DNA from: a virus
Taxonomy: Duplodnaviria; Heunggongvirae; Uroviricota; Caudoviricetes
Strand: one strand, 5' to 3'
Virus record (IMG/VR): IMGVR_UViG_2548877009_000019
Length of the DNA stretch: 5,037 nt
The notes under the pieces were generated by a model. The model saw nothing but the letters and a program-made list of their open reading frames with translations, was not told the DNA's origin and searched no databases. This document shows positions 2,037-5,037 of this stretch, one piece after another. Numbering within the stretch: the stretch's first letter is position 1; every line of letters begins with the position of its first letter. The position numbers and the translations under genes are program-made.

Positions 2037-2240
2037 TCAGGCTGGTGGGCAATTACCTTGCTTGTTGGGGCCGTATTGTGCTGCCATTTTCATCCGTTCA
2101 GAACGTGAATATTTTTTTAGAAACTCATCAAGGACAAAAGCGCATGGAGCGAATCTTTCTGATTCATGCTCGAGCGCCATATTTTCGTGCTCTCTGTTCG
2201 TTTTTTGCGATGGTGTATTGGTTGATTCTTTATTGGTCAT
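2037..2240 (-). CDS. Hypothetical small protein (67 aa, starts MTN); paralogous in position and 5' sequence to the 2698-2925 ORF
   Basis: Minus-strand ORF whose start is preceded by the conserved 45-bp leader repeat. Shares ATGACCAA and CACCAATACA with the 2698-2925 ORF at the DNA level. Has a downstream minus-strand terminator. The Shine-Dalgarno is weak (AGG about 9 nt upstream), so translation is uncertain. Confidence 0.3.
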   Translation of the reverse strand: MTNKESTNTPSQKTNREHENMALEHESERFAPCAFVLDEFLKKYSRSERMKMAAQYGPNKQGNCPPA

Positions 2241-2697: not shown

Positions 2698-2925
2698 TCA
2701 TCCTGGCGGGCGATTCTTACGGGACTTTAGCCGCCGTGGGCAGCTTGCTAAAAATGCCTCCAACGCGAATAGTCCAGGTTTCATTTCTATCGGTATTAGT
2801 TGGATATTCAGAGGATTAGCCAGTTCGGCTTCAAGGCGAGCACAGGTTTCTAACTGCCTTTGCCGAATGATTTCATCTTCTTGCGTCTGCGTGTCTTGTA
2901 TTGGTGATAGTGTGTTGTTGGTCAT
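2698..2925 (-). CDS. Hypothetical small protein (75 aa, starts MTN)
   Basis: Minus-strand ORF immediately downstream of the 2983-3162 gene, separated from it by the 45-bp repeat copy B. Followed on the minus strand by the 2531-2577 terminator. Paralogous start to the 2037-2240 ORF. Weak Shine-Dalgarno. Confidence 0.35.
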   Translation of the reverse strand: MTNNTLSPIQDTQTQEDEIIRQRQLETCARLEAELANPLNIQLIPIEMKPGLFALEAFLASCPRRLKSRKNRPPG

Positions 2926-2982: not shown

Positions 2983-3162
2983 TTATTCTGATTCTTTGGT
3001 CTTGCGGCGCTGGCGGCGTTTGATTTCGCCGCGCATGGCTGCGTTTATAAACTGCCCCGTGCTTTCACCTTCTTCTTTCACGTTCTCCATGCCTTCAATA
3101 ATTTCATGGGCAATACGTGCAGTTACAGATTGTGATTTTGCATTCTTTGGACCCGTTGCCAT
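2983..3162 (-). CDS. Small basic protein (59 aa, MATGPKNAKSQSVTARIAHEIIEGMENVKEEGESTGQFINAAMRGEIKRRQRRKTKESE); candidate regulator
   Basis: Start placed at the internal ATG (plus 3160-3162) because it has a strong Shine-Dalgarno GAGGGG with 6-nt spacer; the longer track ORF to 3201 has none. Divergent from the plus-strand operon across an operator-like region. Lys/Arg-rich C-terminal tail. Regulatory role is inference. Confidence 0.55.
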   Translation of the reverse strand: MATGPKNAKSQSVTARIAHEIIEGMENVKEEGESTGQFINAAMRGEIKRRQRRKTKESE

Positions 3163-3182: not shown

Positions 3183-3264
3183 GGTGTAAGACAATATACA
3201 CGAAAAAAAAATATTTTGAAGGGTTGACGTGTAAGACACCGTTATTTTACATTGTGTCTTACAC
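3183..3264. promoter_or_regulatory. Divergent promoter/operator region with GTGT-N3-ACAC palindromic motifs
   Basis: GTGTAAGACA (3184-3193), GTGTAAGACAC (3229-3239) and its exact inverted copy GTGTCTTACAC (3254-3264). A -35-like TTGACG at 3224-3229 overlaps the second motif; the -10 is poor (TTACAT/TACATT). Confidence 0.5.
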
Positions 3265-3290
3265 CTTGTTAATGCAAGGTACAGAAAAGA

Positions 3291-3356
3291 CGAAACCCCG
3301 CAGTGCTGGAACACATACGGGCTTCTAACCAACAACGTAAACTAGGAGCCGTTATG
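3291..3356 (+). repeat. Leader module copy 2: hairpin AACCCCG / CGGGCTT (17-nt loop), CTAACCAA, Shine-Dalgarno AGGAG, ATG (3354)
   Basis: About 90% identical to copy 1 over roughly 40 bp. Outer stem positions differ from copy 1 in a way that keeps pairing (A-U pairs replacing G-C pairs) with one internal mismatch. Confidence 0.7.
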
Positions 3357-3537
3357 GTTGCTGTAAATCATATACCACACCTTGTACACACACAAACTGC
3401 CTTTGTGTGGCGTTTTCTGGCACTGAATATCGGAGAAAAAAACCAGTTGATCGCCAGTGTCGAAAATAGCTATGATTCCCGCGCACCTCATAAAACGGGT
3501 GCCGGGATTGGCGTCCTGGGCAAAACTGAAGCGCATA
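3354..3537 (+). other. P3-paralogous short ORF (MVAVNHIPHLVHTQTAFVWRF...) with no in-frame stop before the 3538-3560 terminator; leader peptide or decayed paralog
   Basis: Good Shine-Dalgarno (AGGAG). N-terminal roughly 30 codons are paralogous to the 3723-3911 ORF with several synonymous differences. The frame runs without a stop through the terminator to 3911, so the 202-aa track ORF is unlikely to be one real protein. Confidence 0.3.
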
Positions 3538-3560
3538 ACACGCGCCCCGCGTGTTTTTTT
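3538..3560 (+). terminator. Strong Rho-independent terminator (ACACGCG-CCC-CGCGTGT followed by a T-run)
   Basis: Perfect 7-bp GC-rich stem (3538-3544 and 3548-3554), 3-nt loop, T-tract through 3560. Plus-strand specific. Lies inside the 3303-3911 track ORF and upstream of the small-ORF operon. Confidence 0.75.
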
Positions 3561-3657
3561 GTGCCGCATAGTCACACCTTATCAATGGTGGGCTGTACGG
3601 GGGCGGAGCAATCCGCGCCGGTTTCTTCAGTGTCCGGTTACGCCAACCCTGTACAGT

Positions 3658-3725
3658 CCGCCACCAGCGAAATTGGCGTTTCCGGTGGCGGTTATCTTAA
3701 CCACACTGAGGAGGCTGCCAACATG
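3658..3725 (+). repeat. Leader module copy 3: hairpin CCGCCACC / GGTGGCGG (18-nt loop), TCTTAACCAC, Shine-Dalgarno GAGGAGG, ATG (3723)
   Basis: Perfect 8-bp stem at 3658-3665 and 3684-3691. Same architecture and spacing as copies 1 and 2 but with a completely different stem sequence. Confidence 0.6.
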
Positions 3726-3911
3726 GCTACTATCCCTACCCTTGTACATTCTCAAACCGCCTTTCTCTGGCGCTTTATCATCTTTGGCGCGTCAGAACAT
3801 CAAATCATCCACGTAACCGCCTGGACGGAACGCGAAGCGCGTAGCCGTTGCCCGTCAGGTTGTGTTGCTGTATTTGCCGCCCGTATTCGTCAGGAGGTGC
3901 GCCATGATTAA
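3723..3911 (+). CDS. Hypothetical small protein (62 aa, MATIPTLVHSQTAFLWRF...); first gene of the small-ORF operon
   Basis: Strong Shine-Dalgarno GAGGAGG (3708-3714) with 8-nt spacer. Stop overlaps the next start (ATGATTAA). Paralogous N-terminus to the 3354 ORF with synonymous third-position differences. Confidence 0.6.
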   Translation: MATIPTLVHSQTAFLWRFIIFGASEHQIIHVTAWTEREARSRCPSGCVAVFAARIRQEVRHD

Positions 3912-4116
3912 TCTGTCACTTACTGACCTTAACCGCATTCAGTTTCGTGAGAAATTCACAGGGCAGCTACTGGTCAATGTGGATAAAGGTCGCGTGGTGT
4001 GTAATTACCACTTACCAGATGAAGCAATTGTCGCCACAAGGGAATCATTACAGGAAATCACAAAACGTGCCGGAATGATTAACACGAATATTCAGGGGAT
4101 GCTTTATGCACAATAA
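3904..4116 (+). CDS. Hypothetical small protein (70 aa, MINLSLTDLNRIQFREKF...)
   Basis: ATG at 3904 preceded by GGAGG (3893-3897, 6-nt spacer). Translationally coupled to the genes on both sides. The track's upstream extension to 3862 has no ribosome-binding site. Confidence 0.65.
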   Translation: MINLSLTDLNRIQFREKFTGQLLVNVDKGRVVCNYHLPDEAIVATRESLQEITKRAGMINTNIQGMLYAQ

Positions 4117-4366
4117 AACCACACCGGACGCAGCCGCCGAAGCCATCAAAACGCTGATGCACGCGCTGATTGATATTTCTGTTATCGCGGACAGGGCACA
4201 TAAGCACGCCACCAGCGAAACAGAATATGCCGGGGCTTTCGTTCCTCACTCACTGGCTGTTATGCAATTTAGTGCTGATATGGCACTGAATGAGGCTAAA
4301 ACCATCCTGATTACTGATTGTGAAAATGGGGGGGGGTTATGCTTGATGATCGTTTTAATTCCCTGA
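4106..4366 (+). CDS. Hypothetical small protein (86 aa) whose C-terminus runs through a G9 tract
   Basis: ATG at 4106 preceded by AGGGGA (6-nt spacer); overlaps the upstream stop. The 3' end depends on the G9 tract at 4328-4336, so its true C-terminus is uncertain. Confidence 0.55.
   Translation: MHNKTTPDAAAEAIKTLMHALIDISVIADRAHKHATSETEYAGAFVPHSLAVMQFSADMALNEAKTILITDCENGGGLCLMIVLIP
4328..4336. repeat. Homopolymeric G9 tract at the junction of the 4106 and 4339 ORFs
   Basis: Nine consecutive G counted directly. One extra G would fuse the two ORFs in frame; one fewer would truncate the upstream ORF just before the downstream ATG. Confidence 0.9.
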
Positions 4367-4572
4367 AACAGGAATTTTCCGGCGTTCCTGATGATGCGGC
4401 TGATGCGCTTTCGTCAATGCCAGAACTTATTAGAGCGGCTTTTTTCTTACTTTCCACGAGAGAATATAAATCAACGGGGCTTGATGTACTGAATATCGCC
4501 GCCGATTATGCGGAATATGTGGCAGAGGCTCGTTACAGAAGAAAATTTCCTGAGGATGTAAACCATGCGTGA
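4339..4572 (+). CDS. Hypothetical small protein (77 aa, MLDDRFNSLKQEF...)
   Basis: ATG at 4339 immediately after the G-run, which can act as a Shine-Dalgarno. Stop overlaps the next start (ATGCGTGA). May be the C-terminal part of a fusion with the upstream ORF if the G tract is really G10. Confidence 0.55.
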   Translation: MLDDRFNSLKQEFSGVPDDAADALSSMPELIRAAFFLLSTREYKSTGLDVLNIAADYAEYVAEARYRRKFPEDVNHA

Positions 4573-4798
4573 TATTTACCACGAAACAACAGATCGCGTA
4601 TTTCTTGCACTTTCTCACAGTGAAAATATGATGGAAATATTGCGCATATGGCTTGAAACACTTGGCGACAATGAACGCGACAAACAAAAATCAAGAATTG
4701 CCACGGCATTAATAACGCTTCTTGAGCCTGTAATAAATGAGTTGCAGGAAATAGAGACATTACACGACCAGTATAAAGCGCCCCACACCGGAGAATAA
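4565..4798 (+). CDS. Hypothetical small protein (77 aa, MRDIYHETTDRVF...)
   Basis: ATG at 4565 preceded by GAGGA (4552-4556, 8-nt spacer); 8-nt overlap with the upstream gene. Antisense ORFs in this region (4430-4687, 4533-4844 minus) have no such signals. Confidence 0.6.
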   Translation: MRDIYHETTDRVFLALSHSENMMEILRIWLETLGDNERDKQKSRIATALITLLEPVINELQEIETLHDQYKAPHTGE

Positions 4799-4803
4799 AA
4801 ATA

Positions 4804-5037
4804 ATGAAACTTAAATATTCTGGCTTAACTGCCAGTGGCAACACTCACCCTAAATTTACGCGCGGTGATATTTACCGCGACCAGTACGGCGGTACGGTAA
4901 TGATTAAGGGCGTGGCGGGACGGTGCGTAACTTACCGCCGTGAAGGTTACGAATATGATTGCGTGATGCCTGTTTATCAGTTCCGGCGTGATTTTTCTCT
5001 GGTACAGACCGCGCCGCATAACGTGCCCACCAGCAAC
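4804..5037 (+). CDS. Hypothetical protein, 3'-truncated by the window edge (first 78 codons, MKLKYSGLTASGNTHPKFTRGDIYRDQYGG...)
   Basis: ATG at 4804 preceded by GGAGA (4790-4794). Open to the end of the window in frame 1; not in the ORF track because no stop is reached. Hand-translated. Confidence 0.55.
   Translation, partial: MKLKYSGLTASGNTHPKFTRGDIYRDQYGGTVMIKGVAGRCVTYRREGYEYDCVMPVYQFRRDFSLVQTAPHNVPTSN

Follow-up and report, generated by a model that had tools for sequence, protein, structure and literature searches.

The stretch examined here, 5,037 nucleotides (nt) of virus DNA held in IMG/VR as record IMGVR_UViG_2548877009_000019 (the window), ends in a chain of six small open reading frames (ORFs) on the + strand, at 3723-5037. 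An earlier note, made from the sequence alone, had described these ORFs as consecutive and coupled, with overlapping stops and starts and good Shine-Dalgarno sequences, and had placed them in the early position of a satellite element. Based on family assignments, RNA analysis and comparison with related islands, we propose that this segment makes up the 5' portion of the early rightward operon in an Escherichia coli capsid-forming phage-inducible chromosomal island (PICI), that it is organized like the left operon of P4, and that it is gated by an RNA at ORF1. We consider this reading likely. The chain comprises the following genes, with lengths in amino acids (aa).

3723-3911, + strand: ORF1, 62 aa, Icd-like and P4 Kil-like, the first gene translated after an upstream RNA module.
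3904-4116, + strand: ORF2, 70 aa, phrog_340, an optional member of the chain.
4106-4366, + strand: ORF3, 86 aa, N-terminal half of a fused 154-aa protein (phrog_2512 positions 1-77).
4339-4572, + strand: ORF4, 77 aa, C-terminal half of the fused protein (phrog_2512 positions 78-154).
4565-4798, + strand: ORF5, 77 aa, phrog_2196, acidic.
4804 to past 5037, + strand: ORF6, 78 codons in the window and 99 aa in full, DUF4222/RgdR family, basic.

ORF1 and ORF2 overlap by 8 nt (ATGATTAA), ORF2 and ORF3 by 11 nt (ATGCACAATAA), ORF3 and ORF4 by 28 nt, and ORF4 and ORF5 by 8 nt (ATGCGTGA); a 5-nt gap separates ORF5 from ORF6. A purine-rich, Shine-Dalgarno-like motif lies 5-10 nt before each start (from ORF1 to ORF6: GAGGAGG, CAGGAGG, CAGGGGA, G9, GAGGA and GGAGA), and a + strand scan of 3723-5037 found nothing resembling a promoter or a terminator. 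Comparison of ORF1 and ORF3-ORF6 with their orthologues in four E. coli islands (79-95% identical) gave ratios of nonsynonymous to synonymous substitution (dN/dS) of 0.15-0.58, with the differences clustering at third codon positions; ORF2 was left out of this calculation, its sole orthologue among those four loci being identical. Because of this purifying selection, and because about 85 related loci show the same spacing at their junctions, the six ORFs on the one strand, their overlaps and their Shine-Dalgarno sites are confirmed as real, beyond chance. The operon continues past ORF6, which is not its end.

Coordinates, dN/dS and junction conservation therefore bear out the coupled arrangement that the earlier note had described, and the early position holds as well. 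Its statement that no family could be named does not survive, since ORF1 matches NF033153, ORF6 belongs to DUF4222/RgdR, and PHROG families take in all six ORFs. Its view of the functions as unrecognisable stands for ORF2, ORF3/4 and ORF5 but not for ORF1 and ORF6, which fall into named families; likewise, six ORFs are real, but to speak of six proteins is an overcount, ORF3 and ORF4 being the halves of phrog_2512. The products differ in charge: ORF3, ORF4 and ORF5 are acidic, with isoelectric points of 4.6-5.3 (5.3 for ORF3 alone), and ORF6 is very basic (10.2).

ORF1 belongs by sequence to the Icd family. It matches NCBIfam NF033153, "host cell division inhibitor Icd-like" (57.2 bits against a cut-off of 25), and is 49% identical to icd of the P1-like phage D6. 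It must be read with the caveat that it also forms the last 62 codons of a longer in-frame ORF at 3354-3911, which matches Pfam Phage_ASH as well as NF033153 and is 31% identical to the P4 ORF spanning cI and kil. The long ORF is present in exactly this sequence on 99 contigs; a variant of 186 aa is on at least 1000. ORF1 is thus the positional homologue of P4 Kil, and its product is possibly a gate peptide and a candidate cell-division inhibitor. The region upstream of ORF1, much of it shared with the long ORF, contains the elements listed here.

3224-3253, + strand: promoter-like site TTGACG-18-TACATT, from a consensus scan only, ahead of the long ORF; putative analogue of P4 PLL.
3354-3911, + strand: long in-frame ORF ("Ash-Icd", eta-like), 185 aa, spanning both RNA elements and ending as ORF1.
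3447-3476, + strand: promoter-like site TTGATC-18-TATGAT, from a consensus scan; proposed analogue of P4 PLE.
3483-3559, + strand: isrK/seqA-like element, Rfam RF01394 (66 bits against a gathering score of 50).
3506-3513 and 3524-3530, + strand: targets b1 and a1, respectively, inside the isrK element.
3537-3555, + strand: stem that, with the T run following it, forms an intrinsic terminator at the end of the isrK element (terminator scan).
3581-3668, + strand: C4/CI-type antisense RNA, Rfam RF01695 (77.6 bits against a gathering score of 45).
3672-3715, + strand: downstream target region, with b2 at 3672-3679 and a2 at 3702-3715.

The -10 hexamer of the promoter-like site at 3447-3476 ends 7 nt before the 5' end of the isrK element, and both of its hexamers are conserved in the other C4-carrying loci. 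The C4-type RNA folds with a predicted energy of -46.9 kcal/mol and presents a 12-nt loop, a' (3622-3633), and a single-stranded segment, b' (about 3640-3647). The best duplex that a' can form anywhere in 3200-5037 is with 3702-3715 (-15.0 kcal/mol), that is, with a2, which covers the ORF1 Shine-Dalgarno sequence GAGGAGG (3708-3714). Beside the loop, ACGCCAA is single-stranded and finds a match (ATTGGCGT) in two places, at 3672-3679 and, within the isrK element, at 3506-3513. Between P4 and the window, loop and target have changed in a mutually compensating manner: cognate loop/target duplexes have energies of -15.0 and -14.0 kcal/mol, as against -6.6 and -6.1 kcal/mol when the partners are crossed with those of P4.

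The pairing elements vary together. Eleven C4-carrying islands, representing five sequence variants, were compared, and the following combinations were among those seen.

Window type: loop a' TTTCTTCAGTGT, target a2 ACACTGAGGAGG, upstream a1 ACTGAAG.
Two variants: loop a' GTTCTTCGTTAA, target a2 TAACGAAGAGG, upstream a1 TTAACGAAG.
Another variant: loop a' TTCCCTTTGACG, target a2 GTCAAAGGAGG, upstream a1 GTCAAAGG.

In a further variant, b' has become AAGGCTAA and b2, in step with it, TTAGCCTT. The RNA loop is thus predicted to pair with the ribosome-binding site of ORF1, and the compensatory changes in a1/a'/a2 and in b'/b2 are direct covariation evidence for this pairing. Taken together, the region has the parts of an immunity module of the P4/P1 type: a C4 RNA upstream, a seqA/isrK element with a promoter in front (a consensus match only), covarying complementarity between loop and ribosome-binding site, and an Icd/Kil-like first gene nested in a longer ORF. 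Rfam matches to C4 and isrK in Gram-negative PICIs were previously noted by Mageeney et al. (PMC10111431). The Phage_ASH match (about 3471-3752) largely overlays the isrK and C4 RNA genes and their target sites, and what annotation pipelines call an "ash family protein" is the ORF that holds the isrK and C4 genes (3483-3668).

The likeness to the P4 left operon extends to geometry. In both, covariance-model matches place isrK/seqA before C4/CI, and 54 nt separate the 3' end of C4 from the first ATG; the stretch AGGAGGCTGCCA(A/T)CATGGCTAC, in which the Shine-Dalgarno sequence is followed by ATG and by codons giving Met-Ala-Thr, is shared with P4 kil. In P4, too, the first gene (65 aa, MATTLTPSH...) forms the end of a longer ORF, of 214 codons, that spans both RNA elements; its stop and the start of epsilon overlap by 8 nt, and small genes in a chain connect it to the replicase. 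P4 kil is reportedly the first gene translated after PLE and is nested in eta; P4 immunity is said to block kil translation, so that Rho terminates transcription at timm inside kil, and translation of eta from the upstream PLL is said to override this termination. Unlike the gene order, homology with P4 is confined to the Ash/Icd-Kil part: the replicase here is a RepA-family helicase and that of P4 is alpha, the gene before it is DUF4222 here and DUF5375/Cnr in P4, the island encodes its own capsids, and most of its relatives are without the RNA module.

The immI region of P1 (c4, icd, ant1/ant2) likewise has a C4-family RNA followed by an Icd-family ORF, although the genes downstream are an antirepressor in P1 and small ORFs, DUF4222 and a replicase in the island. 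P1 c4 RNA reportedly targets the icd ribosome-binding site, and the downstream genes are said to be translationally coupled to icd. A third system, isrK-orf45-anrP of Salmonella Gifsy-1, has an isrK element with a leaky intrinsic terminator and a processed downstream RNA at the position of the C4 family, and expression of its downstream gene depends on translation of a short leading ORF; it differs in that the short RNA there activates translation and the output is an antirepressor (PMC4825925). The principle common to P4, P1 immI and Gifsy-1 is a gated leader ORF with coupled downstream genes.

Based on these comparisons, we propose the following course of events. Transcripts starting at about 3483 would yield a short isrK-like RNA and, upon read-through, the C4-like RNA, which would pair with 3672-3715 and block translation of ORF1. 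Because each downstream gene would rely on ribosomes arriving from the preceding gene, an untranslated ORF1 would silence the whole chain. Rho-dependent termination in the C-rich start of ORF1 probably helps this silencing; the ratio of C to G peaks at 2.1-2.3 (C-rich and G-poor) at 3713-3816, the place where a rut site would be expected. The replicase would then be off and the island quiescent. Upon induction, which would need AlpA and a helper phage, transcripts from the upstream promoter, possibly driven by AlpA, would allow the long ORF at 3354-3911 to be translated through the RNA module, and this translation would override the block and turn on ORF1-ORF6 and replication. The long ORF would in this way play the part of eta and ORF1 that of kil, with the overlaps relaying the decision to the replicase.

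The element that carries this operon is best seen in E. coli JNE120442 (NZ_AP027254, our locus L001), in which an island of about 15 kb between roxA and phoQ is 99.8% identical to the region. This island begins with int, alpA, three small leftward genes, the "ash"/icd pair, four hypothetical genes and the DUF4222 gene, continues with a RepA-family helicase, SSB and PerC, and ends with genes for the major capsid protein, prohead protease, portal, head closure, connector, HNH, TerS and TerL; tail and lysis genes are absent from its gene set. It therefore has the gene content of a capsid-forming PICI, namely int and alpA, its own replicase, capsid, portal and terminase genes, no tail or lysis genes, and a length of 10-15 kb, and the satellite nature that had been suspected from the sequence is borne out. 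The window itself holds int, alpA and the start of the operon, the rest being read from the 99.8% identical island. Of 5426 complete E. coli genomes, about 2000 contain parts of the region, and in O157:H7 genomes the operon is present at 95% identity. In gene set, the JNE120442 island also matches the capsid-forming PICI prototype EcCIEDL933, for which the published work covered the packaging module and alpA and not these small genes; EcCIEDL933 is induced and transferred by the helpers HK106 and HK446 (bioRxiv 10.1101/2022.09.08.507074).

A P4-like early operon in a capsid-forming PICI belongs to an already known type of system, and current ideas are not overturned; the value of the assignment lies in annotation and in testable constructs. 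What was an anonymous row of small ORFs can now be annotated as one module, a capsid-forming PICI's early operon whose first gene carries an RNA gate of the P4 type. Gram-negative PICIs are without an identified repressor (PMC6092414), and the RNA gate is a concrete candidate for the silence of some of them.

Several observations weigh against this reading. The isrK/C4 module occurs in only 11 of about 90 related islands, and in the remaining islands icd directly follows a divergent YlcI/YnfO gene. Because most relatives lack the module, RNA gating would be an optional add-on layer and not the general control of the operon. Both promoters are consensus matches only, and the dependence on Rho is deduced from base composition. 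Every ORF has its own Shine-Dalgarno site, so that coupling need not be obligatory. Lastly, no function could be assigned to ORF2-ORF5, the PHROG families of ORF2 and ORF5 being without annotation and the structure models poor.

An alternative reading is that ORF2-ORF5, or the whole set, are effectors directed at the helper, or defence or anti-defence proteins, and not the replication switch of the island. P4 epsilon is a helper-derepression gene, and epsilon and orf151 of P4 sit in equivalent slots, likewise with 8-nt overlaps. The slots of the island are variable, with ORF2, an unrelated "ORF2alt" or nothing in one, a replacement for ORF5 in about 15 loci, and different triplets in islands like that of O-island 51 (OI-51); ORF3, ORF4 and ORF5 are small, acidic, helical proteins, and no Pfam family was matched by nine other small ORFs that take up the equivalent slots in related islands. 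Yet a PADLOC search returned no match to any of the six ORFs at E <= 0.1, which leaves the earlier guess at defence or anti-defence without a supporting match, and neither ORF2-ORF6 nor the alternative cassette ORFs show homology to P4 epsilon, orf151 or cnr. ORF3/ORF4, moreover, are present in every locus, a result that is partly circular because the IMG/VR loci were chosen via the ORF3/ORF4 junction, and the related capsid-forming PICI EcCIEDL933 does not interfere with its helpers (bioRxiv 10.1101/2022.09.08.507074). We regard an effector role as unlikely, if still deserving of some weight.

That AlpA and the divergent YlcI/YnfO-type regulator alone control the operon, with the isrK/C4 module as a passenger or relic, appears distinctly unlikely to us. 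The absence of the module from most relatives would agree with such an arrangement, as would the requirement for alpA in EcCICFT073 and EcCIEDL933. The module also resembles an insertion: the peptide at the start of the long ORF here (MVAVNHIPHLVHTQTAFVWRF...) is the one with which icd opens in module-free islands, which suggests that the window carries an inserted module flanked by a duplicated icd 5' end. Against this, the three-way covariation of a1/a'/a2 and that of b'/b2 across five variants show ongoing selection on pairing, the geometry is identical to that of P4, and the two controls can coexist.

The junction between ORF3 and ORF4 reads GAAAAT-G9-TTATGC and contains the following element.

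4328-4336, + strand: variable G run, G9 here, which doubles as the Shine-Dalgarno-like stretch for ORF4.

Many relatives carry ORF3 and ORF4 as one gene, and in O157:H7 they form a single 154-aa coding sequence. The length of the run determines the arrangement: G7 or G10 fuses ORF3 to ORF4; G8 or G11 causes ORF3 to stop at ...GGGYA, with an 8-nt overlap with ORF4; and G9, as in the window, gives ORF3 a nine-residue out-of-frame tail and the 28-nt overlap. Among 83 tracts on IMG/VR contigs, 23 were G7, 34 G8, 20 G9, four G10 and two G11. Run lengths were mixed in 6 of 11 groups with identical 465-nt flanks, and O55:H7 RM12579 (G8) and O157:H7 PV15-279 (G7) differ at only 3 of 1971 other positions. 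The run is thus a coding homopolymer that varies between otherwise identical sequences, as at a contingency locus, and its length shifts faster than point substitutions accumulate. From the annotated gene counts, the O157:H7 and O55:H7 genome groups each appear to share one stable run length. Given these shared states, the O55:H7/O157:H7 contrast and the occurrence of the exact 86-aa G9-type product on 152 contigs (the 79-aa G8 type is on 277), the variation is real and recurrent and is no read error in the window.

These results also bear on the idea that the split is a disabling frameshift or a homopolymer sequencing error, and that the fused 154-aa protein is the real product. The break does fall exactly within the G run, and fused forms of 150-161 aa are abundant and diverse (77-99% identity). 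But the two split products recur on the many contigs just given, genome groups differ in run length at near-identical sequence, and split alleles keep both halves under purifying selection. At 35-50% identity, furthermore, most halves stand as separate proteins of about 75 aa (standalone relatives of ORF4 have 71-77 aa), and the ATG right after the run, with the run itself as a Shine-Dalgarno-like stretch, makes ORF4 translatable in all three frames. We consider a broken gene quite improbable. Programmed recoding at the G run (-1 ribosomal frameshifting on G9, or transcriptional slippage) to give some fused protein is highly improbable, for although a -1 shift inside the run would bring ORF4 into frame and fusion is clearly tolerated, the three frames occur at comparable frequency, and neutral slippage at the DNA level fits this better than a conserved recoding signal.

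We read the junction instead as a frameshift-tolerant border between two cooperating proteins. Since ORF4 stays translatable in all frames, changes in run length may be neutral. The hypermutable G run rewires two early proteins. A more far-reaching proposal is that the G7-G11 run is a genuine switch between one fused and two separate proteins, which would alter the action of the early proteins on replication or on the helper and create population heterogeneity; that ORF2-ORF5 form an undescribed early complex of Gram-negative PICIs; and that the RNA module is the "missing repressor" for a subset of these elements. We offer this as a tentative and rather doubtful extension.

Structure prediction, a check that the earlier note had suggested, was uninformative for these proteins. 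The AlphaFold2 model of fused ORF3-ORF4 (mean pLDDT 61, pTM 0.36, alignment of 37 sequences) and that of ORF2 (pLDDT 52, alignment of 25 sequences) were too poor for use, and Foldseek with either model found nothing in the PDB below E = 1. The predicted fold of ORF3/4 can be described as "helical" and no further, and that of ORF2 as "hairpin plus helix". A sequence search of the PDB gave nothing meaningful for ORF1, ORF2, ORF5 and ORF6.

ORF2 is found in only some related loci; elsewhere it is absent or swapped for an unrelated 77-aa ORF. Tandem variants of 121 aa exist, as does a 196-aa variant in which it is joined to ORF4. The idea that ORF2 has a HicB-like fold was a mere impression from sequence and was dropped, and the name "DUF4242" that some records give this ORF was not reproduced by Pfam at E <= 1. 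ORF5, by contrast with ORF2, is present in most relatives; it has 494 close relatives, nearly all of 77 aa among the 120 listed, and a dN/dS of 0.21-0.40. Although ORF3, ORF4 and ORF5 all have about 77 aa, paralogy among them was rejected (hhalign probabilities <1%). Two natural fusions were observed, one of tandem ORF2-like and ORF4 segments (P0168, 196 aa, on 131 contigs) and one of Icd-like and ORF3-like segments (P0412, 135 aa), and they hint that the small proteins may act together. ORF2-ORF5 are probably small accessory proteins that do so.

ORF6 matches Pfam DUF4222 (PF13973; 82.9 bits against 27). At its full 99 aa it shares 78% identity with annotated RgdR and retains R20-G21-D22, so that domain, basic character, length of about 99 aa and RGD at residues 20-22 all place it in the RgdR/DUF4222 family, with residues 1-78 lying in the window. 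RgdR (ECs1581 of O-island 51, O157:H7) activates LEE1, in the enterocyte effacement locus (LEE), and type III secretion, represses motility and binds DNA non-specifically, and its close variants differ in activity, ECs1581 and C1493 being active and a 94%-similar commensal variant inactive (PMC3378721, PMC10877973). ORF6 occupies the same place as RgdR of O-island 51/CP-933C, directly before the replicase, and OI-51-type islands share the roxA-side integration site; the effects on LEE and motility, on the other hand, were shown for the O157 protein only (PMC3378721, PMC10877973). In the JNE120442 island, the stop of DUF4222 overlaps the start of the RepA-family helicase by 4 nt. By analogy with RgdR, ORF6 may be a basic, DNA-binding accessory protein that is co-translated with the replicase and also perturbs host regulons. 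RgdR, known only as a virulence regulator, is thereby placed at a fixed spot in a satellite replication operon, and genes of its family are co-translated with three different replicase types. A genome-wide locus search with DUF4222 returned one locus. Fusion of DUF4222 to the replicase was considered and rejected, as the RepA sequences hold no DUF4222 segment and the mixed 90% cluster was a clustering artefact.

The order of genes is fixed across about 90 loci. It runs from int and alpA through one or two leftward genes of YlcI/YnfO or ribbon-helix-helix (RHH) type, isrK and C4 (in the 11 loci only) and icd to ORF2, the unrelated 77-aa ORF or nothing; ORF3 and ORF4 follow, then usually ORF5, then DUF4222/RgdR, then a RepA helicase, a DNA primase family protein or a DUF927 protein, and finally SSB and PerC. 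The junctions, given in nt with overlaps as negative values, are as follows.

icd to the next gene: -4, -8 or -11 in related loci.
Into ORF3: -11 in 81 of 87.
ORF4 to ORF5: -8 in 41, +1 in 26.
ORF5 to DUF4222: +5 in 62 of 64.
DUF4222 to replicase: -4 in 72 of 73, with any replicase family.

The junction distances are as conserved as the genes themselves, with Icd and DUF4222 as fixed bookends and ORF2 and ORF5 as optional members.

Upstream of the operon, the window contains several further genes.

1605-1793, + strand: alpA, AlpA-family regulator, Pfam PF05930 (65 bits).
2298-2477, - strand: second, weaker copy of a YlcI/YnfO-family gene.
2983-3162, - strand: divergent small gene of the YlcI/YnfO family, NCBIfam NF041551 (64.7 bits against a cut-off of 30).

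AlpA is the activator needed for induction of Gram-negative PICIs, being required in EcCICFT073 and EcCIEDL933 (PMC6092414, bioRxiv 10.1101/2022.09.08.507074). The gene at 2983-3162 is a candidate regulator of the rightward promoters, and nearly all related loci have such a gene immediately upstream of icd. Two leftward ORFs, at 2698-2925 (- strand, 75 aa) and 2037-2240 (- strand, 67 aa), lie downstream of the two YlcI/RHH-type genes; both start MTN... and look like paralogous partners of those genes. The 75-aa ORF has no annotation in a near-identical RefSeq record.

The regulatory region as a whole is a tandem mosaic, in which the leftward small-gene pair and a leader are present in two copies, as 84% and 79% identical repeats. 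The repeat pairs are 2230-2304/2915-2989, 2534-2561/3282-3309 and 3371-3416/3731-3776, the last being the duplicated icd 5' end, and a further degenerate icd-like start lies at about 2609. A conserved hairpin-like motif, GCCCCG-N18-CGGGGC, at 2546-2580, with a degenerate copy at 3294-3326, falls in the leader upstream of each icd-type start; it may serve as an operator or form an RNA structure in the leader. Between int and alpA, an AT-rich hairpin (1381-1462) gave a sub-threshold match to Rfam BSnc120 (27 bits against a gathering score of 114) and is probably just a terminator-like hairpin. Lastly, int adjoins roxA both in the JNE120442 island and in an RgdR-bearing island of the OI-51 type (NZ_CM167685, our locus L006), and the two differ in their cassettes and replicases, which suggests that several types of satellite compete for one attachment site.

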